A program made the position numbers and the translations under genes. The notes under the pieces are model-generated. The model made no database searches, was not told the origin of the DNA, and saw only the letters and a program-made list of their open reading frames with translations. DNA of 12,000 nt from a virus (Duplodnaviria; Heunggongvirae; Uroviricota; Caudoviricetes), in the IMG/VR virus record IMGVR_UViG_2660238061_000007. The stretch is one strand, 5' to 3'. Position 1 is the first letter of the stretch. Each line of letters starts with the position of its first letter. Of the stretch, positions 100-11,736 are shown in pieces.

Positions 100-261
100 T
101 ACTTTTGCGCCTCCCAGCCGGACCGGCGCTGCGGCGTAATACGCGGCAATTTCACCAATCCAGCCGGTCAGCCTTTCCCGCTGCTCCTGACTGTTCGCGC
201 CCAGAATAAAATCCATCGCTGACTGCGTATCCAGCTCACTCTCAATGGTGGCGGCATACAT
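100..261 (-). CDS. Hypothetical protein, N-terminal 54 codons only (truncated by gap)
   Basis: Minus-strand ORF starting with ATG at 261..259 (MYAATIESELDTQSAMDFILGANSQEQRERLTGWIGEIAAYYAAAPVRLGGAKV), running into the N-gap; no family recognised. Confidence 0.3.
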
Positions 262-342
262 CGCCTTTATGAAAAGACAGGAAAAAATAAAATTTAAAAA
301 CAGTACATTACGAATGCTCAGACCTATCGTTTAAAGGAGTCG

Positions 343-363
343 CAATACACACTGCAATACACG
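343..363. repeat. Terminal direct repeats GCAATACACA x2 (candidate integrase arm-type or att-associated sites, left island end)
   Basis: gcaatacacactgcaatacac here is 20/21 identical and co-oriented with gcaatacacattgcaatacac at 11035-11055 beside the integrase gene. Confidence 0.5.
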
Positions 364-699
364 ATTATTTATAAGATGAGCGGCATCCGTCATAAAGCTG
401 GTGGATGCTTTTTCTATGCATATATGCACAGTTTTAGTGGGCGTTAATGTCGATATAGGGATCCCCATATCGAGATTGGATACCTGGCTTTTTTCCGGTT
501 AACCTTTAATCAGGCTGGTGGGCTTTACCTGTTTTGTATGAGTGGTCATCATGACCATGTCATAACAAAAACCCCATATTCGTGGTTTTTCTGTGTCGGG
601 CTATTCTGTCGTTGCTGTGCTGATTTGGCTGGTGGGCTGAATCATCATTACGGCGATGCAGCTATGTAGACGTTCCGGCCTCCTCAAATTGAGGATTGT

Positions 700-830
700 G
701 GAAGAATCAATGGGTTAGTCTTACTTTCCCGACATCCCCCAATGGGGGTTTTCGAAACAATCAATAGCTTAGGCTTACTTCCCCGATTTCCTGCATTGCA
801 GGTTTTCGAAATAATCAATGGGTTAGGCCA
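700..830. repeat. About 2.5 copies of a ~54-bp tandem repeat, each copy containing a short GC-stem palindrome
   Basis: Unit GGTTTTCGAAA(C/T)AATCAAT(A/G)G(C/G)TTAGGC at 746-774 and 800-828, partial copy at 700-719; spacers TTACTT(T)CCCGA... are also related; palindromes CCCCCAATGGGGG (735-747), CCTGCATTGCAGG (789-801), GTGCAATTTTGCAC (835-848). Confidence 0.7.
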
Positions 831-1076
831 TCGTGCAATTTTGCACTTTGCCAGCCAGCGCAATGTCGCGTTATCAGTCCTCAGATGTGAGGGATGTAGC
901 CAGCTTTTCCCCCAGTGGGGGATATCCAGCACCGACGGCTTAACTGTGCGTGCCAGCACAAGGTAGCCTTGAACTACTTACTGCATCCCATCTTACAGGC
1001 CGTGCCTTCCTGCTTAACTTTTTGCAATGCAACAAGTCAGCCAGCGCAATTTTGCGTTATCGGGAATATCAGCAAG

Positions 1077-1358
1077 TTACCGCCGCAATCGTTCCGGCTT
1101 CTTCCACTGGTAAGTATTTTTCGCGCTCTCCCTCCGTTGTTGAGAACGGCGACGATATGCCAGCAACTCAAGGACTCTTGTTCGTATGTTGCGCATATCC
1201 ACGCCGTTAAGCTCAATACCGTCACGGCGCATCACCTCAGCCACTACACGCACATAATTATCTGCGGTCACGCTGTCCGGCTGCGTGGCCTGTTCGTCAT
1301 GCTGCTTGCTGATTCCACAAGCACGGCGGATTAATCGCAGTATTTCGGATTCAGTCAT
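1077..1358 (-). CDS. Hypothetical small basic protein (93 aa) downstream of terS
   Basis: Protein-like composition (MTESEILRLIRRACGISKQHDEQ...), same strand and operon position as terS; competing plus-strand ORFs are low-complexity. No confident family. Confidence 0.45.
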   Translation of the reverse strand: MTESEILRLIRRACGISKQHDEQATQPDSVTADNYVRVVAEVMRRDGIELNGVDMRNIRTRVLELLAYRRRSQQRRESAKNTYQWKKPERLRR

Positions 1359-1440
1359 AGCGTACTACGTTACTTATCTTTATTCGGCTGCAACTTATCC
1401 GGTACGTTTCCGGCAGTTTCCATCAGATAATCGGACAGCA

Positions 1441-1911
1441 TCAGCGGTATGTTTTCGTCAAGTTTTGCGCATGCGTTACAGGCTCTGATAACTTCTTTTT
1501 CAGTCCATCCAGCATAGACGGCTTCATGTCGGGAAACTTCCTTGTCATGGCAAGCGGCAGGCTGTCCATGATTGAAGAAATCTGACTCGCCAATTTTGAA
1601 AGCACGTATATACAAAACGCTGTATCAATAACGTCGCCGCGTTCGCGCTCGTTTTTAAGCTCCTGCGCCTCTGCCTGTGCTGTCAGCAATCTGATCCTGA
1701 CTCGTAGGAGTTCATCATCATCAATCTCGCCTTTGTCGTCTGTAATCTGGTTAATTGCATTGCTAACCCGATTGTCTATTACGCTGGCAACATCATAAAA
1801 CGCCTCGCGGCCTTTACGTTCAACGGGAGTCACTCCCCACTTGTCGAACGCTGTCGCACTTACACGGCAGCTTTGCGCCATGTTTTTTTTGTTCATCAGG
1901 TGCGATTTCAT
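1441..1911 (-). CDS. Small terminase subunit, lambda Nu1-like
   Basis: Translation aligns by eye with lambda Nu1: LLTAQAEAQELKNERERGDVIDTAFCIYVLSKLASQISSIMDSLPLAMTRKFPDM versus lambda LTRAQADAQELKNARDSAEVVETAFCTFVLSRIAGEIASILDGLPLSVQRRFPEL; N-terminal MNKK motif also shared. Start is ambiguous (ATG at 1923, 1911 or 1896); 1911 has the best SD (GGGGA). Lies about 130 bp downstream of a cosN. Confidence 0.9.
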   Translation of the reverse strand: MKSHLMNKKNMAQSCRVSATAFDKWGVTPVERKGREAFYDVASVIDNRVSNAINQITDDKGEIDDDELLRVRIRLLTAQAEAQELKNERERGDVIDTAFCIYVLSKLASQISSIMDSLPLAMTRKFPDMKPSMLDGLKKKLSEPVTHAQNLTKTYR

Positions 1912-2022
1912 CAATATCCCCACTTAAGTAATGTTTCAGGTTGGTGTATTGGCTTTATCTTTTCCTTTTTATTCATAGAGATAGAGCGAACAACAAAACC
2001 ACCACCAGCACCCGAAAAAGGC

Positions 2023-2061
2023 TCATAAATAGCGAAAACCCGCGAGGTCGCCGCCCCGTAG
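2023..2061 (-). other. cos: Lambda-type cos site (cosN with 12-nt cohesive end GGGCGGCGACCT)
   Basis: Minus strand reads CTACGGGGCGGCGACCTCGCGGGTTTTCGCTATTTATGA, matching the remembered lambda cos junction over about 37 nt; positioned immediately upstream of the Nu1-like gene as in lambda. Confidence 0.85.
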
Positions 2062-2112
2062 CCTACCGGATCGCCGGAAAGGACCCGCCAGCCAGAACGG
2101 GCCCTAATTTCA

Positions 2113-2496
2113 TCAACCAATCAACTTATAGCGACCATCCCGTGCATTGCGACGTACACGCTCAATCTTGAGGCATAGCGCCGCATCTGGCTTTTTTGGG
2201 ACAGGTACGCGGCAATATTCAGAAGATCGAGGAATATTGTTTATCCAGTCGATCACTTCACTTAAATACCAGGCCTTACGCCCTTCCGTAACCTGCACAC
2301 GCTCCGGGAACTCTCCACTAGCCTCAAGGTTTAGCAATGTGCGACGGCTAAGGGTAGTAAGTTCCATCACCTGATTCATATCAACAAGGCGTTCACTTAA
2401 ACGCATTTTGTCAGCAATAGCCTTTAATTCCTCTACTGCTGGATCCGGATACATCATTTCGGCAATTGGCTTAAGGTCATTGTAATGATTCTGCAT
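2113..2496 (-). CDS. AlpA/Xis-family HTH protein with N-terminal extension (127 aa)
   Basis: Central segment MELTTLSRRTLLNLEASGEFPERVQVTEGRKAWYLSEVIDWI fits the AlpA-type HTH pattern; strong SD (AGGGGGA) 4-5 nt upstream of the ATG, 11 nt after the gpD-like stop. Confidence 0.7.
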   Translation of the reverse strand: MQNHYNDLKPIAEMMYPDPAVEELKAIADKMRLSERLVDMNQVMELTTLSRRTLLNLEASGEFPERVQVTEGRKAWYLSEVIDWINNIPRSSEYCRVPVPKKPDAALCLKIERVRRNARDGRYKLIG

Positions 2497-2507
2497 TGTA
2501 TCCCCCT

Positions 2508-2849
2508 TTACACACGAGCCAGCGGCTGAACAGAAATACCTGAGCCAACAAACGCGGCAACCTTTGCCGACAGTTCTTTTACAGACTCAGGCCAGTTCAG
2601 AGCATCAACATTTAAAACACCTGTCTTATAAACCTGTGCCTGTGTTTTTTTCGCTGTGTCGATTTGTACAGCGGAAACATAAACCGCTTTACCTACGCTC
2701 GAACCATCCCATACCACCAGTGCACCTGTTGCATCTTCCTGCATCAGTGGCGTAAATGCAGGAATTACCCCTTTATTAGCTGAAAATATCCCCAGCGTAG
2801 TCACCAGTGCTTCAGTGCCAGCCATGAGTTCAGTGTAATGAGTAGCCAT
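2508..2849 (-). CDS. Head decoration protein, lambda gpD-like
   Basis: Shared motifs with lambda D by eye: TPLM, VVWDG (lambda VAWDG), YKTG (YKSG), NWPE (LWPE), AAFVGSGISV (TAFAGTAISIV); similar length (113 aa); SD GGGGGAG upstream. Confidence 0.8.
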   Translation of the reverse strand: MATHYTELMAGTEALVTTLGIFSANKGVIPAFTPLMQEDATGALVVWDGSSVGKAVYVSAVQIDTAKKTQAQVYKTGVLNVDALNWPESVKELSAKVAAFVGSGISVQPLARV

Positions 2850-2858
2850 TGCTCCCCC

Positions 2859-3905
2859 TTAGCCAATGCGAACGGTAACAAAACGATTGATGCGGGCCGG
2901 TATTGGCTGTGGTGCTGAATGTGTCTGCACATATTCAATAGCCGGATCACCAGGCACAATATAGTTTTTCGGTGCAAGTTCGGCTTTAGTCAGCCCCATT
3001 CGGATTAGCTCCGGATCCTGAATACCGCCATAGGCGACAATCCCCTGAAGAGCCGTATTGCCAAGCACCATCAAATCAGGATCAAGGAAATGTTTTTCTG
3101 TTCCGTCCTCGTCGGTATAACGCCCGCTGTAAACAACAATCGCAACATCGCCCATATACCCTTTAAAACTCACCGAATCACCAAGGTCTTTAAGGGCCGT
3201 TTCCAGTTCGGAATTAGAACCACGACGGGTATCCAAAGCCTCTTTTATCGCTCTGAATGAACGGTATTTCTTCCATACATTACCACCCATAATGATGATA
3301 TTAGTGACGCCCTCACTAAATTCTGCGTAGCTCTCAATATCATCATTTGGATCAAAAGTTTCTTTATCCTTACCTGACCACTCAGTACCGCCAGACTGAG
3401 TGATGATATTTTGTGGTTTTATATTCCAGTCCAGCTCATAACGTTCAATACCATCGCCCTCAATGATATTTTTCCCCGTTGTGATTGCCTGAACAGCAAG
3501 CCATTCAATACGTGCACGAATAGCTTTAGCCTGATTTACAATCGCCTGTTTAACTTTAATATTACGTGCCCCAAAAGCATTGTATTGCTCAGGTGATACA
3601 CCAGCAGGGCGCACAGCTAACTTATTTGGATCAATGCTGCTTTTCGGCTTCATATAGCCTGGACGAATTGTTTTTGATTCGTACCCTTCGTCACGTGAAA
3701 CTTTACTACCCACCATAGGAGAACAAAACGCTGCAATTGGGATATTTGGATCGTCGATTGTATCAAGAATAATATCGCGCGATTCAAACATTACCGAGCG
3801 AGTAAAAAACAAACTGGTAAACAACGCATTTAGTTGTTTTTGTACATCTACAGCATTAACCACCTGTACAAGCTGAGTAGGCGAATATAAATCAACCATA
3901 CGCAT
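2859..3905 (-). CDS. Major capsid protein, lambda gpE-like
   Basis: Strong similarity by eye to lambda E: NIITQSGGTEWSGKDKETFDPNDDIESYA versus NITQSGGTEWSKRDKSTYDPTDDIEAYA; DTRRGSNSELETALKDLG and GDVAIVVYSG and MVLGNT conserved. Start set at the internal Met (MRMVDLYSPTQL, like lambda MSMYTTAQLL) with SD AAGAGG; the ORF-track extension to 4112 is judged non-coding. Alternative start 3899. Confidence 0.9.
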   Translation of the reverse strand: MRMVDLYSPTQLVQVVNAVDVQKQLNALFTSLFFTRSVMFESRDIILDTIDDPNIPIAAFCSPMVGSKVSRDEGYESKTIRPGYMKPKSSIDPNKLAVRPAGVSPEQYNAFGARNIKVKQAIVNQAKAIRARIEWLAVQAITTGKNIIEGDGIERYELDWNIKPQNIITQSGGTEWSGKDKETFDPNDDIESYAEFSEGVTNIIIMGGNVWKKYRSFRAIKEALDTRRGSNSELETALKDLGDSVSFKGYMGDVAIVVYSGRYTDEDGTEKHFLDPDLMVLGNTALQGIVAYGGIQDPELIRMGLTKAELAPKNYIVPGDPAIEYVQTHSAPQPIPARINRFVTVRIG

Positions 3906-4073
3906 CCTCTTTGCATTCATTAAAAATAATTGTGGATATATGCTACCACCGATATTTGTCATGCGAACACATGCAACCGAGTGCAATGTTGTATAAAGTT
4001 TTGGGGTGACAACTTCAGTGCGGACAATTAGTGTTAATATCTTCACTCCCTTTGGTCGGGATTTATGTAGCAT

Positions 4074-4107
4074 GCCGGAAAATTTATTTTTTCCGGCCTT
4101 TTTTATT
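4074..4107. terminator. Hairpin with T-run (intrinsic-terminator-like) between ssb and the capsid gene
   Basis: GCCGGAAAA (4074-4082), loop TTTATT, TTTTCCGGC (4089-4097), followed by CTTTTTTATT on the plus strand; the minus-strand reading lacks a U-run, so the strand of action is uncertain. Confidence 0.4.
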
Positions 4108-4115
4108 GGCAATAT

Positions 4116-4565
4116 TTAAAACGGGATATCATCTCCCCATTGCTCATTATCTCCCACTGGTGGCTGGCTTCCTTGCTGATCTGCCTGTTGTTTTGCTCTG
4201 TTCAGTTCGTCAGTAGCCTGCCCCTGTTGGCCTTTTTTGCCGCCCGGTCGCGCCGTTCGCGCACTGATTACGCTGTCTGCGATAACCTGCCAGCCCCGCC
4301 GCGTTTCGCCGTTCTGGCCTGTCCACTGGCTTACCTGCATGTTACCCGCCACGCTCACCAGTTCGCCTTTGTGGTGTTTTGCCAGTGCGTCGGCCTGTCT
4401 GCCAAACGCCAGGACGGATAACCACATCGTCGCCGTTCCGTCATCTGCCTGGCTGCACGGCAGGGGAACCGCCATACTCGCCATCGCCATTTGTGTCCCT
4501 TTGCTGGTGGTCTTTAACTGCGGGTCAGCCACCAGCCGCCCGTAAGCCGCTATCTGTGCTGTCAT
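4116..4565 (-). CDS. ssb: Single-stranded DNA-binding protein (SSB)
   Basis: C-terminal acidic tip ...WGDDIPF as in E. coli SSB (DDDIPF); OB-fold region resembles SSB; Gly/Gln-rich linker. Start overlaps the upstream ORF stop (ATGA). Confidence 0.85.
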   Translation of the reverse strand: MTAQIAAYGRLVADPQLKTTSKGTQMAMASMAVPLPCSQADDGTATMWLSVLAFGRQADALAKHHKGELVSVAGNMQVSQWTGQNGETRRGWQVIADSVISARTARPGGKKGQQGQATDELNRAKQQADQQGSQPPVGDNEQWGDDIPF

Positions 4566-4876
4566 GCTGTCTGCTCTCCGGTTTTAACATTGATGGTTGT
4601 CACCTGTTCCGCTTCGGCAATCTCCCGTTCTGTCAGCGTGGCAAAGTTTGCCGCTGCTGTGGTCATGAATGCGCTTATCAGGTCGGGATGTTCCTTCGCG
4701 TATCCTGCCCGTGTGTGGTGGTCTATCGCTTTGATTGCCACCTTTAAGGAAAGCTCTGTCATGTCTAACGCTTTATATTTTGCCTGTGTTCTGTCTCTGC
4801 GAATTTTGGTCATTTGTCGCCCCTGATTCATGTTTTCGGCTGGCATGTTTATTAAGTGATTTTTATGTATGCGCAT
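4562..4876 (-). CDS. Hypothetical protein (up to 104 aa), translationally coupled to ssb
   Basis: ORF with ATGA overlap to the ssb start; no recognised family; start uncertain (internal Mets at residues 11, 16, 22). Confidence 0.45.
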   Translation of the reverse strand: MRIHKNHLINMPAENMNQGRQMTKIRRDRTQAKYKALDMTELSLKVAIKAIDHHTRAGYAKEHPDLISAFMTTAAANFATLTEREIAEAEQVTTINVKTGEQTA

Positions 4877-4925
4877 TTATTTTCACCCCCCCCTCGTTTA
4901 AAAAGTTTTTAGTTGTGCCTCCCCC

Positions 4926-5145
4926 CCTCTACCCATCTACCCGAATGCTCATCATGTCAGTAATGGCGCGGCTTTCAGCGGGTAGATAGCTTTTTGACTC
5001 CTCTACCTGCCGTCTACCCTGCTACCTGAAACTGATAAAATCAGGTAGAAGAGGTAGAGAGCTTTTATTAGCCTTCTACCTAGCCCTATACCCACTTATC
5101 ATGTTGAATAATATGCGTTTATTTTGTTCAGGTAGATGGGGTAGA
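4926..5145. repeat. ori: Iteron-type replication origin (about 11 copies of GGTAGA/TCTACC, often in tandem pairs)
   Basis: ctctacccatctaccc (4926-4942), ggtagata (4981), ctctacctgccgtctaccc (5001-5019), ggtagaagaggtagaga (5043-5059), ttctacct (5076), ggtagatggggtagatgg (5132-5149); flanked by AT-rich and poly-C tracts; immediately 3' of the primase gene. Confidence 0.7.
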
Positions 5146-5161
5146 TGGCTTTTACAAAAAA

Positions 5162-6916
5162 TTATAAAAACGCGTCGCAATCGTCTGTTGTAATTGCGTT
5201 GGTCTGCGTTACTCCCTTAACTTTTCGCGTAATATATTCATGCCCGTAAACTTTCGCCGCTGGCTTCATGGCCTTGCTGAACTCAGCCACGTTTAGCGGT
5301 TTGCTCCTGCCCGCGTATGCCATAAACGCCAGATAGACGCGGTAAAGGCTGTTCCTGGTCGTGTACTTCACTGAATCACCACCGCCACCCATCATCAGGC
5401 CGCGCGCTTCCTCCAGAAAATTCAGGAACTGGCAAAACTCAATAACCGGATCCGTCTGTTGCTTTATTGCCAGTGCTTCATCACCGTCACGCTGTTCCAG
5501 TAGTAAAGCCCGTGCCTTCTCAGGGTCGGTAAAGTTCGCCAGCAATCGGCGGATAATAACGGGGATTTCAGCCGCAATCTTTTCCGGTAGCTCCCTGTCT
5601 TTTTCGGCCTCACTGACGATATTGTCGAAACGGAAAATCACGCGACGACGTGCCACACCTCCGGCCCGTTCGGTGAATATCATCGGGTTGTTGTTGGTCG
5701 CCAGCACCACCGCCCTGATTACCGCCGTGAAACGCTTTTCATATTTCGGGTTAATTTCCACGGGGTCGCCGCCTGTGATTTTCTTGATGCCCGTTCCTTC
5801 GCCTGTATATTTCGGCTGGTCAGCCAGGACGATAAGACGACTCCCGACAACCTGCGCACGTCCACCAGCATCATCAAGCGATGTCATTTCAGCGCTTACC
5901 GTGTTCTGTTTCCCTGCCAGAAGGCTGGCTATGTGTGTGAATGTACTTTTACCGCTCCCGCCGTCTCCGGTGGCCTCAATAAACATCTGCCAGTCGTACC
6001 GGTTCGCCATAATCATGTACAGCGCGGCACATATACGCATCATCTTGCGCGGGTCTTTTCCGGCTGCGTGCTCAAGCCATTTATGAAAGTTTGGCGCGTT
6101 ATCGCGGATGTTCTCCCCTGGTGCTGGTGGCGTGTACTCAATGCCGTTGTGCGTGGTGATCCAGTTCTCCGGCGTGTGCGGGGAAAATTCCCCCGTTTTC
6201 AGGTCAAGCGCACCATTGGCGAACGGCAGCAAATCGCCAGACGGCTCGCCCATTGGTTCGGCAATAACTTTTAACGCTTCCACGGCGTTATTGATTACGC
6301 GCTTGCTGAAAGTGGCCCTGTGCTCTGAATAGATCGCCACCATTTCGCGGCTAAGTTCCATTGTGCTGACCGGACACCATACCCCGCCGCGCCATACGTG
6401 AACGATTTCACTTTCAGGATGTACGCAAACGCCATCAAAGCGATCGGCAAGCAACTGCGCGCGCTCACTGTCCGCCATCTGCGAAAGTTGCGCCTTTTGC
6501 TTTACCGGAAGCTCAATGACCAGACCATCAGAAAGATTCTGGCGTTCACGGGCCAGATATTCGCGCCAGTTCTGCACCTCCTGGCCGTGCATACCCTCAG
6601 GATAAAAATTTGCATCCTGTACGCCTGCTGCCGCCAGCTTCTGACCAATCGCCTTTATCATTACAGGCGCAAGATATCCGGCCCTGTATATGCGTGCTGA
6701 TTTTCGGCCTTCCGGCACAATTTGCAGATTATCCAGTTCGGATAGCTGCTGCTCCCCAAGCCACACAGGAGGCTCATTATCTCCGGCCATACGCGCATCA
6801 TGTTCCTGCCATTGTTTCGCGTGTGCCCAGGCATCACTACCCGCAAAAATAATGACTTCTGTTCCTTTGTGTTTTATGCCGCGTGACTGCTGTTTTACGT
6901 TCGGTGCCAGTTTCAT
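5162..6916 (-). CDS. P4-family primase/helicase (SF3 helicase-like P-loop NTPase), replication initiator
   Basis: 584-aa ORF with Walker A GDGGSGKST and a D5/P4 primase C-terminal-like region; SD GAGGT 6 nt upstream; followed by the iteron ori, the typical pri-ori layout of PICI/P4-like satellites. Confidence 0.85.
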   Translation of the reverse strand: MKLAPNVKQQSRGIKHKGTEVIIFAGSDAWAHAKQWQEHDARMAGDNEPPVWLGEQQLSELDNLQIVPEGRKSARIYRAGYLAPVMIKAIGQKLAAAGVQDANFYPEGMHGQEVQNWREYLARERQNLSDGLVIELPVKQKAQLSQMADSERAQLLADRFDGVCVHPESEIVHVWRGGVWCPVSTMELSREMVAIYSEHRATFSKRVINNAVEALKVIAEPMGEPSGDLLPFANGALDLKTGEFSPHTPENWITTHNGIEYTPPAPGENIRDNAPNFHKWLEHAAGKDPRKMMRICAALYMIMANRYDWQMFIEATGDGGSGKSTFTHIASLLAGKQNTVSAEMTSLDDAGGRAQVVGSRLIVLADQPKYTGEGTGIKKITGGDPVEINPKYEKRFTAVIRAVVLATNNNPMIFTERAGGVARRRVIFRFDNIVSEAEKDRELPEKIAAEIPVIIRRLLANFTDPEKARALLLEQRDGDEALAIKQQTDPVIEFCQFLNFLEEARGLMMGGGGDSVKYTTRNSLYRVYLAFMAYAGRSKPLNVAEFSKAMKPAAKVYGHEYITRKVKGVTQTNAITTDDCDAFL

Positions 6917-7212
6917 TTTTTACCTCTGAATCCGTTAATCATGGTTTTCATTTTCTGGATATTTCCCCACGCTTTTTCCCTGCTGATGGGCTTACTGCGG
7001 GGTGCGGCATATACCAGGGGAAAATCACGCCGGAACTGATAAACAGGCATCACGCAGTCATAGCTATACCCCTCACGGCGGTAAGTGATGCGCCGTTCTG
7101 CCACGCCTTTAATCGTTACCGTGCCGCCGTATTTATCGCGGTAAATATCGCCGTTCATAAATTCAGGTCGAGCGGGGCCGCTGGCAATAAAGCCAGAATT
7201 TTTCATTTCCAT
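6913..7212 (-). CDS. Hypothetical protein (99 aa), stop overlaps the primase start (ATGA)
   Basis: Translational coupling to the primase; SD-like GAGGAA upstream; no family recognised. Confidence 0.55.
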   Translation of the reverse strand: MEMKNSGFIASGPARPEFMNGDIYRDKYGGTVTIKGVAERRITYRREGYSYDCVMPVYQFRRDFPLVYAAPRSKPISREKAWGNIQKMKTMINGFRGKK

Positions 7213-7229
7213 ATTATTTATTCCTCGAC

Positions 7230-7451
7230 TTAACTCGACTTATTTGATAGCAGGGCACTATTTATTGCGTCATTGAGTTTTTCTGCTGATTCATCAATAA
7301 GTGACAACAGGCCATAAGCAATATTTGCATCTTCATTGTCATTTATGCAATCAAGCCACATATTTAATATTGCTTTTGCTGAATTATTTAAAGTTAATGA
7401 ACTTTCTGCACATGCTAACAATTTAAAAAAGACTTCCCGTTCTGTATTCAT
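7230..7451 (-). CDS. Hypothetical small acidic protein (73 aa) in an AT-rich block
   Basis: SD GGGGGA 4-5 nt upstream; stop of the upstream ORF directly abuts the ATG (TAAATG); local composition visibly more AT-rich than neighbours. Confidence 0.5.
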   Translation of the reverse strand: MNTEREVFFKLLACAESSLTLNNSAKAILNMWLDCINDNEDANIAYGLLSLIDESAEKLNDAINSALLSNKSS

Positions 7452-7643
7452 TTAATCCCCCACCAGCTTACTTTCTTCCTCAATCAAAAAACTAGCGACA
7501 CTTCCCGAAAGACGCGCCAGTAGGCTCGCCAGTGCGGATATATCAGCATCTGTAATTTTGTTCGGGTATACCTCAAGAAGGCGGCAAATAATTTCTGTCT
7601 GGTGCGCACGTTCAGCGGCTTCGTGTAATGTAATTTCCTGCAT
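7452..7643 (-). CDS. Hypothetical small acidic protein (63 aa)
   Basis: SD AGAGGTG upstream; start overlaps the upstream stop (TAATG); part of the coupled operon. Confidence 0.5.
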   Translation of the reverse strand: MQEITLHEAAERAHQTEIICRLLEVYPNKITDADISALASLLARLSGSVASFLIEEESKLVGD

Positions 7644-7828
7644 TAATGCACCTCTTTTAATTCATACACTGCTGAAATAATGACTTGTGATAAGCCATAT
7701 TCTGATGATTCGCTTCTCACCGCAGCAATAGCCGTCTGAACATTAACAGCCTTCACATTCTGAGCGATACCAATTGTGTGGCCTATTGGGTTAACAGCTC
7801 GGGCAAATACACGGAAGGTTTTAAGCAT
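7643..7828 (-). CDS. Hypothetical small protein (61 aa), first gene of the operon ending in the primase
   Basis: SD GGGAG 7 nt upstream of the ATG; preceded by a roughly 380-bp regulatory intergenic region. Confidence 0.5.
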   Translation of the reverse strand: MLKTFRVFARAVNPIGHTIGIAQNVKAVNVQTAIAAVRSESSEYGLSQVIISAVYELKEVH

Positions 7829-8047
7829 GACTCACTCCCTGGCGGATTTTTGCAGCGAATACAGCAACACAACCGGACGGGCAACGGCTACGCGCTTCGC
7901 GTTCCGTCCAGGCGGTTACGTGGATGATTTGAGATTCTCCGGCACTCAGTGCCAGAAAACGCCACACAAAGGCCGTTTGTGTGTGTACAAGGTGTGGTAT
8001 ATGATTTACAGCAACCATAACGGCTCCTAGTTTACGTTGTTGGTTAG

Positions 8048-8090
8048 ACGCCCCGTATGTGTTCCCAGCACTGCGGGGCGTTGCTCTTTG
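8048..8090 (+). terminator. GC-stem hairpin with downstream T-rich tract (terminator-like or regulatory structure)
   Basis: ACGCCCCG (8048-8055), 18-nt loop, CGGGGCGT (8074-8081), then TGCTCTTTGTATTTC. Confidence 0.3.
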
Positions 8091-8109
8091 TATTTCAACA
8101 ATCCTTTCG

Positions 8110-8188
8110 GTGTGTTTCATGTTATGAGCGCATGAAACACACGTCAAGGCTTTTTGTATTTCTTTTTTTGTGTATACTGAAACACACC
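8110..8188. promoter_or_regulatory. Operator/promoter region: perfect 12-bp inverted repeat plus a third half-site overlapping a -10-like TATACT
   Basis: GTGTGTTTCATG (8110-8121), 9-bp spacer, CATGAAACACAC (8131-8142); TGAAACACAC again at 8179-8188 next to TATACT (8173-8178); SD AGGAG 8 nt before the ATG at 8209. Confidence 0.6.
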
Positions 8189-8208
8189 GATGATTAGGAG
8201 TTTCAGAA

Positions 8209-8514
8209 ATGGCAACGGCTAACAAAAACGCAAAATCACAACTGACAACTGTCAGAGTCCCACTAGATGTTATGCAAGGGATGGAATCCGTTAAGCTGGA
8301 CGGTGAAAGCAATGCCGGATTTATCGTAACCGCCATGCGCGGAGAAATAGCCCGCCGCCAAGCAGAAGGCAGCGGAGAAAATCCCCTTGTGTCGTCACTG
8401 GATGCCCTGGCTAAGGTCGAACAAATCGGCATCAAAGCAGCCGAGGAGATCGGGCAACTCGTCACCGTCGCGCGTGAAGAACTCCAGCGACGCAAGGTCA
8501 AAGAGCATGAATAG
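8209..8514 (+). CDS. Putative ribbon-helix-helix DNA-binding protein (101 aa), candidate island regulator
   Basis: Excellent SD (AGGAG, 8-nt spacing); N-terminal LTTVRVPLDVMQGMESVKLDGESNAGFIVTAMRGEIARR fits a beta-strand/helix/helix RHH pattern; transcribed divergently from the small-gene/primase operon, beside palindromic operators. Confidence 0.55.
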   Translation: MATANKNAKSQLTTVRVPLDVMQGMESVKLDGESNAGFIVTAMRGEIARRQAEGSGENPLVSSLDALAKVEQIGIKAAEEIGQLVTVAREELQRRKVKEHE

Positions 8515-8571
8515 CCAATATCAGCGCCATAGTTTGAGGAACGCAGGCGCATTGCTTTACAGGACAGCACC

Positions 8572-8751
8572 ATGAGCGACACAGAATCAACCAAAACACC
8601 ATCACCAACTCGTAAGAGACGACGCAAAAATATAGCGCATGAACATGAATCAGAAAGATTCGCACCTTGTTCGTTTGCTCTTGAGAAATTCCTTAAAGAG
8701 CACAGGAAAAAGCTCTCGTTGCAAACCTTGGAACGAACCAAATCTGACTGA
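8572..8751 (+). CDS. Hypothetical small basic protein (59 aa)
   Basis: ORF below the 60-aa track cutoff, found by manual translation (MSDTESTKTPSPTRKRRRKNIAHEHE...); AGGA 7 nt upstream; followed by an intrinsic terminator. Confidence 0.35.
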   Translation: MSDTESTKTPSPTRKRRRKNIAHEHESERFAPCSFALEKFLKEHRKKLSLQTLERTKSD

Positions 8752-8817
8752 TCACATTGCCCACCAGCCGCAAATGTGGCATTGTTGGTGATGCTTTTGT
8801 TTTCCCTTGTTCCCACT

Positions 8818-8847
8818 GGCGACCCTTTTGCGGTCGCCTTTGTTTTG
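8818..8847 (+). terminator. Rho-independent terminator of the plus-strand two-gene unit
   Basis: GGCGACC (8818-8824), loop CTTTTGC, GGTCGCC (8832-8838), then TTTGTTTTG. Confidence 0.6.
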
Positions 8848-9426
8848 TCACTGAATGCGGTTACCAAAGTAAAACTCAGGCTGATATTCACGTATCAGCG
8901 TTTTTTCTTCTTCCTCCAGCTCACGCTTTTTGCGCTTACATGCCTGTAGCTCCCTCCCCTTCTCGCTGGCACTTATTTGATATTGCTCTTTACGGCGGGA
9001 AAAATCCTGTAATGCACCCCACGGGATACCATAAGTCCCCGTTTTTCTGATACCTGGTATCACATTTCTGAATACCCAGTTACTGAAACGATGAGCAAAT
9101 GTGCCAGGCGTCGTTGCTTTGCGGCTGCGGGCTATTAGTTTGTAGAAACCTGACTCAGAGATAATTCTCATATTCTGATTTCCTCCTGGGGTGTAAGTTA
9201 AATTTACTCCCTTTTCATCATCATCAAGCATCTGCAACGCCGTACGCGAATTGGTTAGTTCCAGCGCAGCACAAACATCTTTTGCAACAAACCACGGATC
9301 GCCGTTCAGATACACCACACGAACGTTCACACTATCAAAGCGCAGAACGACGAGATCACGAATATCGCAGAATTTTTTCACTGGACGAGCGTACCCCTTG
9401 CCCGTCACGGCAATATTTTTATTCAT
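8848..9426 (-). CDS. Bro-N domain protein (putative antirepressor-like)
   Basis: Bro-N hallmark segments VRVVYLNGDPWFVAKDVCAALEL, GGNQNMRIISESGFYKLIARSRK and FSNWVFRNVIPGIRKTGTY. Confidence 0.8.
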   Translation of the reverse strand: MNKNIAVTGKGYARPVKKFCDIRDLVVLRFDSVNVRVVYLNGDPWFVAKDVCAALELTNSRTALQMLDDDEKGVNLTYTPGGNQNMRIISESGFYKLIARSRKATTPGTFAHRFSNWVFRNVIPGIRKTGTYGIPWGALQDFSRRKEQYQISASEKGRELQACKRKKRELEEEEKTLIREYQPEFYFGNRIQ

Positions 9427-9444
9427 CGCGTTTTTACCTTATAG

Positions 9445-9470
9445 ACAAAAAACCCCTCGTGATGAGGGGC
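9445..9470 (-). terminator. Rho-independent terminator after alpA
   Basis: Minus strand reads GCCCCTC ATCAC GAGGGG TTTTTTGT, located between the alpA stop (9483) and the Bro-N start (9426). Confidence 0.55.
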
Positions 9471-9482
9471 ATTATTTACTGG

Positions 9483-9740
9483 TTATTGCTGTTTTGTTTT
9501 TCCAGGTTTCCATCCAGGATGCCACTCACCACGGATCCATGCCTGAACCTCTGAAAGTCGATACCCTGCAGCACGTTCACCGATCTTGATACGTCGCGGG
9601 AATTTACCTGCCTGCTCCATTTTCCAGCGTGTTGAGTTTGCCAGCGTGGTAAGTGCTATGCACTCTTTTTCACGAATGAACCGATCAATGTCCTTCATTG
9701 TGCGCAAATCGTTTTCATCAACAAGAGAATAAATTGCCAT
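9483..9740 (-). CDS. alpA: AlpA-family transcriptional regulator/excisionase-like HTH protein
   Basis: 85-aa protein with AlpA-type HTH (ALTTLANSTRWKMEQAGKFPRRIKIGERAAGYRLSEVQAWI); start 1 nt after the integrase stop, the typical int-alpA pairing of P4-like/PICI elements. Confidence 0.8.
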   Translation of the reverse strand: MAIYSLVDENDLRTMKDIDRFIREKECIALTTLANSTRWKMEQAGKFPRRIKIGERAAGYRLSEVQAWIRGEWHPGWKPGKTKQQ

Positions 9741-9741
9741 A

Positions 9742-10983
9742 TCACACCACCTCTTTATTAAGCTCGATAACGTTGTTGTTAAATCCTGCTATCGTATTAA
9801 GGTAATTAACCCACATATTAAGCACCTCAAGTTTTTTCTTTATATGCCTGCTTTTATTGTAAACACCAGCAACCCCTTTCACTTTATGACCTAAAAGAAG
9901 TTCGACAATATAAGGATCCGCCCCCATATCATTAAGCGTAGTGGAAAATGTGCGCCTGAAATCATGTATGCACCACAAGCCATTAGTATCATGACCAAGA
10001 CGCCTGCATATTCTGTTTGCAGCCCCTGTTATTGTCGCCCTTTGCAAAGCACAACCGACAACATAACCGCGATTTTTTGTTTCTGCGTAAAGATTAACGA
10101 TCCATTGTTTTATTCCGTCAGGAACAGGCCTTACTATAGCCTCCTTGTTTTTGCTGTGCTCTTTTGGGACTGTCCATACCCAGTTTTTTAAATCCCATTC
10201 GTCCCAGGTGGATAGCCTCGCCTCCTGCTGTCGGCAACCAAACACCAGGCAGATAACCATTATTCTTCGGTTATATATTGATGACAGAGTTAGCAAATTA
10301 TTACCGTAAGCATAAGACCATACATCAGCGGTTTCATTGATATTAAGAACGCGATCCCTTATACCGGATGAGCGCCCGACATAACTTACGTTAATATCTC
10401 CAAAGGGATCGCACGCGATGTATTGCCTGACGCGACAAAAACGCAACGCCTGTTTGATATCAAGAAAAATTGCACCAGACATAACAGGCGCATTTTTTTT
10501 GATCCTGTCAAAGACGGTAAGCCATGTGTGTAATTTGCACTGTTCTATAGCCATATCACCGATATAGGGGAAGATATGCTTTTCAAATCGTTTTATTAAA
10601 TATTCATGCTCTTTTCTGGCTGTTGTGGCGTGATTGTCGTACCAGTAAAACAGCGCATCCCTTACGGTCACTGGTTGCATAGTTTTTTCGGCAGCAAGTT
10701 TTATTTGCCTGCGGGGGTCCAGATTTTCAGCCAGCCATTCACGGCACTGATCACGCATGCGCCTGGCCGTTGCAAGAGACATGTCAGGATAGCGACCAAG
10801 TGTAAGCCATACCGGAGGGGATTCCCTGCCACCAAGACGATAGTAAAAAACAAAGCTGATCCCCCCAACCATGCTTACACGCACAGACAACCCGCGCCCA
10901 TCCGCTATTGTTTTTTGTTTGTCCTGCCGTTTTCCGACAAGACTCTTTAACAGTTTGTCACTGAGTTTGTTTTCAATAGCCAT
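9742..10983 (-). CDS. int: P4-type tyrosine integrase
   Basis: 413 aa; P4-family N-terminus (DKLLKSLVGKRQDKQKTIADGRGLSVRV...LGRYPDMSLATARRMRD) and catalytic-region motifs (HDFRRTF, LLGHK, Y near C-terminus); SD GAGGG upstream. Confidence 0.95.
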   Translation of the reverse strand: MAIENKLSDKLLKSLVGKRQDKQKTIADGRGLSVRVSMVGGISFVFYYRLGGRESPPVWLTLGRYPDMSLATARRMRDQCREWLAENLDPRRQIKLAAEKTMQPVTVRDALFYWYDNHATTARKEHEYLIKRFEKHIFPYIGDMAIEQCKLHTWLTVFDRIKKNAPVMSGAIFLDIKQALRFCRVRQYIACDPFGDINVSYVGRSSGIRDRVLNINETADVWSYAYGNNLLTLSSIYNRRIMVICLVFGCRQQEARLSTWDEWDLKNWVWTVPKEHSKNKEAIVRPVPDGIKQWIVNLYAETKNRGYVVGCALQRATITGAANRICRRLGHDTNGLWCIHDFRRTFSTTLNDMGADPYIVELLLGHKVKGVAGVYNKSRHIKKKLEVLNMWVNYLNTIAGFNNNVIELNKEVV

Positions 10984-11003
10984 TAAAAGCCCTCAAGAGA
11001 TTT

Positions 11004-11056
11004 GCAATACACACCCATCCCGATCGCCAATTTGCAATACACATTGCAATACACAA
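11004..11056. repeat. Three copies of TTGCAATACACA beside the int promoter (candidate integrase arm-type or att-associated sites, right island end)
   Basis: gatttgcaatacacacc (11004-11020) and gcaatacacattgcaatacac (11035-11055), co-oriented with the copies at 343-363. Confidence 0.5.
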
Positions 11057-11245
11057 AACCGCGAAAAACTGGAAGGGTGATGAACGGTCATCAAAAGCAT
11101 GGAAAACGACATTCCAGACGCAGCAAGGGTTTCAGTGGAGTTGGCGAACGATGCGGGCAACTACGGTGAGATGATAGACATAAATCGCCTTCACAATGGC
11201 GCTCTGCAGCTGCGTGTTCTGCAGCGTGTCGAGCATCTTCATCTG

Positions 11246-11255
11246 NNNNNNNNNN
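11246..11255. other. Assembly gap (N10)
   Basis: Run of 10 N. Confidence 0.9.
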
Positions 11256-11309
11256 ATTGTAATGACAACGTTTCGCGGCTATTCTTGTATTGTTTGGATG
11301 CAAGAATGG

Positions 11310-11360
11310 CCCCCGTGGTGTTGTCAGGTGCATACCTGCAACGTGCGGGGGTTTTCTCTC
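11310..11360 (+). terminator. GC-rich stem-loop followed by a T-run (terminator-like)
   Basis: CCCCCG...CAGGT GCAT ACCTG...CGGGGG followed by TTTTCTCTC. Confidence 0.4.
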
Positions 11361-11618
11361 TCCAGCAACCAATGCCACCAGGGATTAAGCCCCCGCAACA
11401 TTGCGCCTCACCGGAATCCTTCCGGCTTGACGCTGATTCTACGACTGTTTTTCTGTTCCGGAATCCGTCTCATCTTCACTCTGTGCTGCGCATTCCGCAG
11501 AATATTATCCGCTTGCAACCGTTGCATTTTTCTTACGAAAAAGGCCGCAGAGTTTCACCCCTGCGGCCTGGTCCGGGCGCAAATTGCCATTACGGCAGCC
11601 TGACGCCCGCATGACACG

Positions 11619-11726: not shown

Positions 11727-11736
11727 NNNNNNNNNN
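11727..11736. other. Assembly gap (N10)
   Basis: Run of 10 N; the FII-like reading frame does not continue across it. Confidence 0.9.

Follow-up and report, generated by a model that had tools for sequence, protein, structure and literature searches.

The class of helper-embedded PICIs (HE-PICIs), with its plan of Integration, Bro, Replication and Late zones, was described by Tommasini, Mageeney and Williams 2023 (PMC10111431), who place "Bro network" genes in the zone after Int-AlpA and who also put forward, for HE-PICIs as a whole, read-through by late transcription. The alpA gene of Gram-negative PICIs is expressed only with an active helper, after which AlpA turns on the genes downstream (PMC6092414). 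DNA binding is predicted for Bro-N and related N-terminal domains, as cited in PMC9043618; for the telomere phages, a review states that the function of the AntB homologue has not been elucidated, the named antirepressors of N15 being AntA and AntC (PMC4488713). In the literature on Gram-negative PICIs and HE-PICIs, we found no PICI Bro protein whose function had been tested.

The bro gene analyzed here belongs to the "Bro zone" of this published satellite class and is as such a known feature. New relative to PMC10111431, which does not describe them, are a conserved, family-wide Bro tail under selection, a terminator-bounded module that starts in that terminator, four reassorting cassettes, and the independence of Bro from the YlcI/operator types and from the helper immunity (CI) and Q types.

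The island, its helper, and the bro gene

The window, by which we mean the whole 12,000-nucleotide stretch of the virus record IMGVR_UViG_2660238061_000007 that was analyzed, is a scaffold with runs of N at 90–99, 11246–11255, and 11727–11736, and it carries an E. coli HE-PICI in the portal gene of a lambdoid prophage, co-oriented with it. Colinearity with E. coli EC93 is limited to 101–11245 (98.7% identity), and in EC93 and nine other assemblies the 10.7-kb element splits a lambda-type portal gene (Phage_portal_2). Mapping to EC93 places part of the C-terminal half of the helper portal at 101–270 and the end of its N-terminal half at 11180–11245, where the scaffold gap cuts it at 11246; both halves lie on the minus strand around the island, together with left and right att repeats (342–362 and 11034–11054), which form a 21-nt direct repeat with 95% identity. 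The main island genes are co-oriented with the prophage late operon. The element is thus of the same class as the published HE-PICIs, which are co-oriented in a lambdoid late gene and have B:Phage_portal_2 among their sites (PMC10111431). The first-pass annotation had recognized neither this embedding in the helper prophage nor the published Bro zone.

The island begins with int (9742–10983, minus strand; Pfam Arm-DNA-bind_3 and Phage_integrase), an HE-PICI integrase of the portal-site type as judged from its domains and the split portal flanks, followed by alpA of the PICI activator/excisionase family (9483–9740, minus strand; Pfam Phage_AlpA, E = 5.4e-14), bro, and a convergent YlcI/YnfO-like gene with a 59-aa ORF. 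Then come an Icd-like gene, small ORFs, DUF4222, a D5-type primase, and SSB, and finally capsid E, a decoration protein, a second AlpA-like gene, and a Nu1-like small terminase. This order gives Int-AlpA, a Bro-network gene, primase/SSB, and late genes, the same four zones as in the published plan, with the Bro-network gene between Int/AlpA and the primase. Some of the Bro zones in PMC10111431 hold C4/isrK immunity RNAs, whereas none was detected in the present island when the whole window was searched with Rfam at E up to 1. The Rfam matches in the window were rdlD and a weak sok only, both outside the island.

The bro CDS occupies 8848–9426 on the minus strand, including the stop codon, as supported by the ORF list, Pfam, the RefSeq annotation, and its dN/dS. 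In the ORF list of the window its product is an intact 192-aa protein with an ATG start, and the identical protein in RefSeq is WP_001038675.1, annotated as a BRO-N domain-containing protein. A ribosome-binding site, AAGG, was read from the sequence at 9437–9440 (minus strand), 10 nt 5' of the ATG, and is kept as GAGGT or AAGGT in all alleles aligned. The gene is clearly no chance ORF, since the exact protein recurs in 6590 blocks of the assembly collection and 43 distinct E. coli-type alleles have an overall dN/dS of 0.20; by region, this ratio is 0.07 for aa 93–135 and 0.11 for the tail. With 73 of 75 alleles intact, purifying selection acts on bro over its full length, tail included.

Domain architecture and distribution of Bro

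The match to the Pfam Bro-N domain (PF02498) spans aa 34–124 (9055–9327, minus strand) and profile positions 1–96 of 96, with E = 4.9e-20 and a score of 72.4 bits against a gathering cut-off of 25.6, which places the protein in this family. The first-pass annotation had reported an island-encoded Bro-N protein directly after alpA and behind a terminator hairpin, and this domain match and the GC hairpin with T-run described below both bear it out. As a whole, Bro matches phrog_2593, labeled "anti-repressor," with E = 3.8e-85; an NCBIfam search with the whole protein returned no matching model. Bro-N was the sole match in Pfam at E up to 0.01: ANT/KilAC, P22_AR_N/C, AntA, and Phage_ASH were not found, nor did Pfam reveal a nuclease or homing domain. 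Sequence and profile searches of the PDB gave noise only and no solved homologue, and the PADLOC models at E up to 0.01 matched neither Bro nor the small neighboring genes. The helper's own P22_AR_N protein, encoded in the lysis region, was considered as a relative of Bro and rejected as unrelated.

Alignment divides Bro into five parts: a basic arm, the first half of Bro-N, a variable cassette, an invariant basic segment, and a conserved tail. The basic N-terminal arm (aa 1–23; 9358–9426, minus strand; pI 10.2, pLDDT <50) is specific to the PICI family, poorly conserved within it, and missing from phage Bro-N homologues in the alignment. The central cassette (aa 56–92; 9151–9261, minus strand) is, according to the alignments, type I of four old types, and it is followed by ESGFYKLIARSRKATTPGTFAHRFSNWVFRNVIPGIRKTGTYGIP (aa 91–135; 9022–9156, minus strand), a very basic segment of invariant columns with a pI of 11.5. 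The whole protein is basic as well, with a pI of 9.7 and a net charge of +10.6, and across the family the pI ranges from 8.8 to 9.7.

The C-terminal tail (aa 136–192; 8851–9021, minus strand) is helical, conserved, and specific to the family, and has no match in Pfam or NCBIfam. Its last ~60 residues had been called charged and coiled-coil-like from the sequence, and this description agrees with what we find: 24 of the 57 residues are charged, the tail is predicted to be helical, and the conserved motif ASxxGRxLQxCKxxKxxLxxEExxLxxxYQP extends across genera with heptad-like spacing. The domain prediction suggested earlier for this region yielded two predicted helices, 136–156 and 160–181, at pLDDT 65–73 in an AlphaFold2 model that was built from a 40-sequence alignment and is poor as a whole (mean pLDDT 53.7). 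Judged by its matches, the tail is a family-specific module rather than a shared antirepressor domain, because a query with aa 126–192 against 1.84 billion representative proteins found 10 matches, nearly all of them Bro family members or fragments. Three E. coli alleles have a near-identical bro 3' half, for which an embedded RNA element was considered as the cause and rejected; recombination together with protein-level constraint is preferred, since other genera retain the amino-acid motif with different codons.

The nearest relatives of Bro (85–96% identity, 192–194 aa) are abundant in E. coli, Shigella, and Salmonella. A profile search extended the family of 190–200-aa proteins to Providencia, Proteus, Morganella, Erwinia, Pantoea, and Pectobacterium, and further to Yersinia, Serratia, Klebsiella, Enterobacter, Citrobacter, and Edwardsiella. 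At 13 loci from other species, most have an integrase upstream of bro, most have PICI replication genes downstream, and in most an AlpA-like gene lies 5' of bro, as recognized by homology or by ORF reading. Where the flanks of the islands from other genera could be identified, they are housekeeping genes such as folD, yicC, and acylphosphatase; these islands are therefore ordinary chromosomal PICIs. The Bro protein of 190–200 aa, tail included, is a conserved backbone gene product of Enterobacterales PICIs, and only four phage records cover at least 80% of it.

The bro module and its terminator

An intrinsic terminator lies between alpA and bro (9447–9470, minus strand), consisting of a stem-loop at 9470–9452 and a T-run, and is supported by a terminator scan, folding, and conservation. 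The 56-nt alpA–bro spacer contains GCCCCTCATCACGAGGGGT followed by TTTTTG and folds at −14 kcal/mol; the same scan found 16 terminator-like sites in 7600–11200 against 3.9 expected. In 75 of 80 IMG/VR loci the hairpin, a run of five or six T, and the ribosome-binding site are retained before bro. The stem is either CCCCTC/GAGGGG or CCCCGC/GCGGGG, a compensatory T-A to G-C change setting the two types apart, and across the 80 loci the loops are variable and at least four different, unrelated alpA 3' ends lie upstream. Two further sites are on the plus strand. The terminator of the convergent YlcI-like operon (8818–8848), GGCGACCCTTTTGCGGTCGCC then TTTGTTTTGT, abuts the bro stop codon, and the scan placed a second terminator-like hairpin in the bro 3' end (8880–8899), with a T-run derived from EEEEK codons.

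Where the homology to the window begins can be seen from five E. coli islands whose int and alpA genes are unrelated: it starts at 9456, inside the hairpin, and ends at the bro stop codon or 100 nt past it, giving boundaries at 8847 or 8747. The bro gene of E. coli HE-PICIs recombines as a discrete module, with its start inside a conserved terminator. These sharp boundaries, the mosaic cassettes common to bro and phage Bro-N genes, and the documented swapping of Bro-network domains (PMC10111431) would fit a bro that is for the most part a selfish Bro-network cassette, subject to recombination and with a small role in the satellite life cycle. We find this highly doubtful, given the purifying selection over the full length of the gene including the tail, with nearly all alleles intact, the fixed position beside alpA across genera, and the absence of a nuclease or homing domain in Pfam searches.

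Separate control of bro had been considered probable in the first-pass annotation on account of the hairpin. The insulation from alpA by a terminator stands; a promoter belonging to bro itself does not. The homology starts in the hairpin, the distance from the hairpin to the ATG is ~25 nt and is taken up by the T-run and the ribosome-binding site, and a promoter scan found no sigma-70-like site 5' of bro on the minus strand, so that bro has no promoter of its own and is expressed only by terminator read-through. Dedicated control of antirepressor genes takes forms such as a LexA box, Arc/Mnt, or a C4-type RNA; the bro module leaves no space for a promoter, Rfam found no C4 RNA, and there is a terminator gate instead.

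At most loci of the chromosomal PICIs from other genera, bro follows closely within the alpA operon, the gaps being 8–20 nt and free of a terminator; the gate therefore cannot be essential for Bro function. The E. coli islands with the terminator carry three integrase types, for a lambda-type portal, a GpA-type terL, and an HK97-type terL site, and all of them are embedded in late operons. The terminator-bearing alleles are one E. coli lineage, and their link with embedding goes back to one evolutionary event and is not replicated.

Basal int-alpA transcripts would be expected to end at the hairpin, and in the embedded state Bro would be made only when a terminator-resistant RNA polymerase passes it. 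Gene order suggests that the likeliest source would be Q-modified late transcription of the helper, which would reach bro by way of the interrupted portal gene and int-alpA; Q antiterminators are encoded by the helpers. Such read-through would run from bro, antisense over the YlcI-like genes, into the replication and late genes, and Bro would appear late in the helper cycle. In its strongest form, this would make the alpA–bro terminator a licensing gate for Q-modified late transcription and Bro a helper- or host-directed DNA-binding factor with its specificity set by the cassettes, a combination that we regard as rather unlikely. The production of Bro, and of antisense transcripts over the YlcI-type repressor gene into the replication operon, would then signal that the helper is in its late phase. 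If true, the Q-dependent gate would be a cis-regulatory route for timing satellite genes to the late phase of the helper, and a cis-acting form of helper sensing, unlike the inducers of SaPIs, PICIs, and P4, which are known to act in trans.

Candidate targets of Bro and comparison with known systems

The YlcI/YnfO-family gene (8209–8514, plus strand; 101 aa; NCBIfam YlcI_YnfO_N, E = 1.6e-17), a candidate island repressor gene, is convergent with bro, and the 59-aa ORF lies 3' of it (8572–8751, plus strand; phrog_21027, E = 5e-15). Between this gene and the Icd-like gene (7821–8018, minus strand; NCBIfam phage_ICD_like, E = 1.2e-17, and RefSeq annotation), the first of the replication operon, repeat and promoter scans identified a control region (8110–8187) in which TGAAACACAC occurs in three exact copies, two of which form a palindrome over a promoter-like site at 8147–8119 on the minus strand.

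Across 70 loci, the repeated operator motif follows the YlcI type (GAAACACAC, GTGTTCAAC, GTCTTACAC, GTCAGCCAC, TGGAATCCA, GTGCGCACA, and others), independent of the bro allele. A 100%-identical Bro is found with GAAACACAC/ylcI101 and with GTGTTCAAC/ylcI65, and the ylcI101 set is found with Bro alleles of 80–100% identity. Since the operator motif changes with the YlcI type and not with the bro allele, Bro is not the operator-binding protein, and we rejected it as the binder of the three-operator switch of the island; that it is the cognate partner of the YlcI-like protein appears unlikely from the sequences compared. A broader role, in which Bro would antagonize or assist the switch of YlcI-type repressor and operators controlling the Icd–primase operon, could be read from the convergence of bro on the YlcI-like operon, from bro read-through being antisense to that operon, and from a three-operator layout typical of a repressor switch. 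This role is very unlikely in our view: operator motif and YlcI type covary whatever the bro allele, the YlcI-like position holds a SWIM-domain gene or no gene in some islands, and the YlcI-like gene is mostly missing from the relatives in other genera. The YlcI-type repressor/operator sets themselves look, from their sequences, like satellite immunity types, and together with the terminator-bounded module and the four cassettes they may be more useful than the bro finding itself.

The cassettes reassort as well. All four types are present in other genera too, one of them also in phiKO2 AntB, and type I is seen with all three integrase types; a tracking of cassette type with integrase type or att site was rejected on this ground.

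The same independence holds for the helpers. An identical island segment occurs in three helpers with different immunity regions, those of EC93, MS 85-1, and Q5: the CI N-terminal domains of the EC93 and MS 85-1 helpers differ and their Cro proteins are 49% identical, and the CI of the strain Q5 helper is unrelated, at 24–26% identity to the other two. A match of Bro to a helper immunity type was thus not found, an identical Bro occurring with three CI/Cro sets. An identical Bro also occurs with two unrelated Q types.

These observations bear on the proposal, made in the first-pass annotation, that Bro acts on the helper prophage repressor, that is, binds the helper CI and induces the helper or locks in its induction. 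"Antirepressor" is the name given by many sources, CI-like repressors are present in the helpers, partner specificity could reside in the variable cassette, and P4 epsilon, which acts on the C repressor of P2, provides a precedent of helper derepression from an equivalent zone, between an AlpA homologue and the primase. The name is an annotation transfer, however, and the nearest phage homologue, phiKO2 gp27/N15 AntB, has no established function. Pfam finds no ANT/KilAC, P22_AR, or Ash domain in Bro, P4 epsilon is dissimilar, and Bro is basic (pI 9.7) rather than acidic. The three CI/Cro sets beside an identical Bro, one of them unrelated, and a promoterless gene behind a terminator argue further against this proposal. 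Because alpA expression depends on an active helper (PMC6092414), Bro would come after and not before helper induction, too late to start it. A helper-repressor role for Bro is unsupported, and we consider binding of the helper CI, for instance by a broad-range antirepressor, improbable. A literature search on SPC32H Ant as a possible characterized Bro-N antirepressor gave nothing usable.

SaPI Pti proteins and PICI Rpp are the parallels for another possibility, that Bro binds a protein of the helper, such as Q or a packaging or assembly protein, as a factor of interference or hijacking. The predicted late timing of expression would suit this, the conserved helical tail could be a protein-binding surface, and bro is conserved in satellites while its full architecture is rare in phages. 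Against it, there is no evidence for a partner, an identical Bro accompanies two unrelated Q types as well as helpers that differ in terminase and portal families, and the strongly basic, invariant core suits nucleic-acid binding better; we judge such a factor to be an unlikely explanation.

Since bro and its cassettes reassort against the repressor/operator sets, the integrase types, and the CI and Q types, the target of Bro is probably none of these, neither the YlcI/operator set nor the integrase, the helper CI, or the helper Q. More likely targets are other sites on helper or host DNA, or a conserved factor. No candidate binding site for Bro was found. We tentatively propose, with less than even confidence, that Bro is a basic, probably oligomeric, nucleic-acid-binding regulator that is made with the alpA operon or, in HE-PICIs, after it and has its target outside the island's own switch. 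Nucleic acids would be bound through Bro-N and the basic segment, oligomerization would occur through the helical tail, and Bro would act as a transcription-level regulator and not as a repressor-sequestering antirepressor. Bro would be a convenient test case, being very common in E. coli and having a physically known helper for each embedded copy.

Among phage proteins, the closest Bro-N domain is that of N15 AntB/phiKO2 gp27, with 60% identity between phiKO2 gp27 and Bro over aa 35–133. AntB has a type-II-like cassette, and an icd-like gene is linked to both AntB and Bro. AntB is, however, 260 aa long, with a different C-terminal half and neither the N-terminal arm nor the PICI tail, and it is encoded downstream of icd and antA in one operon (the immA operon: C4-like RNA, icd, antA, antB).

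In P4, the stretch from the AlpA homologue Vis/ORF88 to the primase, which corresponds to this zone, contains epsilon and the Eta/Kil–CI RNA region. A tblastn search of the P4 genome with Bro gave no match better than E = 2, epsilon, Eta, and Kil being dissimilar, and Rfam found no C4/isrK-type RNA in the window. Whereas P4 eta is translationally coupled to vis (PMC10111431), here a terminator parts alpA from bro.

Two further systems are informative for the mode of action. Some members of the Listeria AriS family have an N-terminal Bro-N, but SOS inhibition, according to PMC9043618, maps to the ANT/KilAC domain, which is absent from Bro. CapR of the Vibrio PLE is, as cited in PMC10111431, a Bro-network DNA-binding repressor of the helper capsid gene; on that account of CapR, a satellite Bro-network protein acts on helper DNA, which is the mode that we favor for Bro.

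Variation at the island control region

The control region and the YlcI/YnfO-like gene (8110-8514) were compared across IMG/VR loci L072-L146. The Icd-primase operon, the replication operon of the island, diverges from this gene, and three copies of an operator-like repeat cover the promoter beside it. The type of YlcI protein and the repeat motif vary together, giving at least six motif/protein sets among the window and L072-L146. Such sets resemble immunity types of satellites, with the YlcI/YnfO-like protein as a candidate for the master repressor of the Gram-negative PICIs, which was called unclear in a 2018 ISME J paper. The co-variation could also be explained by linkage alone, because gene and operators are adjacent. 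The YlcI/YnfO-like protein may be RHH-like, a reading drawn only from sub-threshold Pfam matches to PSK_trans_fac (E about 0.02-0.03).

Mosaicism and 3' end of the bro gene

Comparison of the central Bro-N cassette (residues 56-92 of Bro; 9151-9261) among L002, L116, L141, L152 and the loci of other genera (L004-L016) revealed four old sequence types, which persist across genera and have been recombined into bro genes that are otherwise near-identical; one of the four is carried by AntB, a Bro-N protein of phage phiKO2. Within the 3' end of bro lies a hairpin (8880-8899) that has the form of a plus-strand terminator, its T-run being supplied by the EEEEK codons of the Bro tail. This hairpin may give the YlcI-like operon, which converges on bro, a second point of termination.

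Possible packaging and replication features of the island

A stretch of 66 bp (2023-2088), shortly upstream of the Nu1-like terS that the island itself carries, shares 95% identity with a segment of the helper in E. coli strain EC93 that lies about 160-220 nt ahead of nohD (small terminase); the stretch is probably the cos site common to satellite and helper. Immediately upstream of the Nu1-like terS, a second AlpA-family gene is encoded on the minus strand (2113-2496; 127 aa; Pfam Phage_AlpA); its product may regulate late functions or packaging in the island. Two 27-nt direct repeats (5041-5067 and 5128-5154; 85% identical) with flanking inverted repeats closely follow the primase gene, where PICI origins are usually located. 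Three tandem 54-nt repeats (675-836), the copies 65-72% identical to the first, are placed between the left att site and the last island ORF.

Island boundaries and related islands

The helper portal gene (101-270 and 11180-11245) is interrupted by the island, with att repeats at 342-362 and 11034-11054. Island and portal gene share their orientation, and the helper cannot produce portal protein until the satellite excises. The sequence beyond 101-11245 has no match to the EC93 locus, and the window is therefore a scaffold of separate contigs; runs of ten N are found at 90-99, 11246-11255 and 11727-11736. The contig piece right of the island holds a full-length rdlD antitoxin RNA (11292-11357, plus strand; Rfam RF01813, 81.7 bits), part of an ldr/rdl type I toxin-antitoxin locus, which has no relation to the island; a weak sok-like match (11240-11394, minus strand) overlaps it.

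The configuration of this island, co-oriented within the helper portal gene, is that of the HE-PICIs (PMC10111431). Other bro-carrying islands (IMG/VR loci L094-L103 and L141-L146) have an integrase of a third type, which shares about 49% identity with that of the window and puts them within an HK97-type large terminase gene, which is preceded by HNH and small terminase genes. The chromosomal PICIs of other genera (L004-L007, L011, L012 and L016) encode a DUF6387 protein between int and alpA and, between alpA and bro, a conserved ORF of 131-149 aa, for which no Pfam match was found in these loci; the E. coli HE-PICIs lack both genes.
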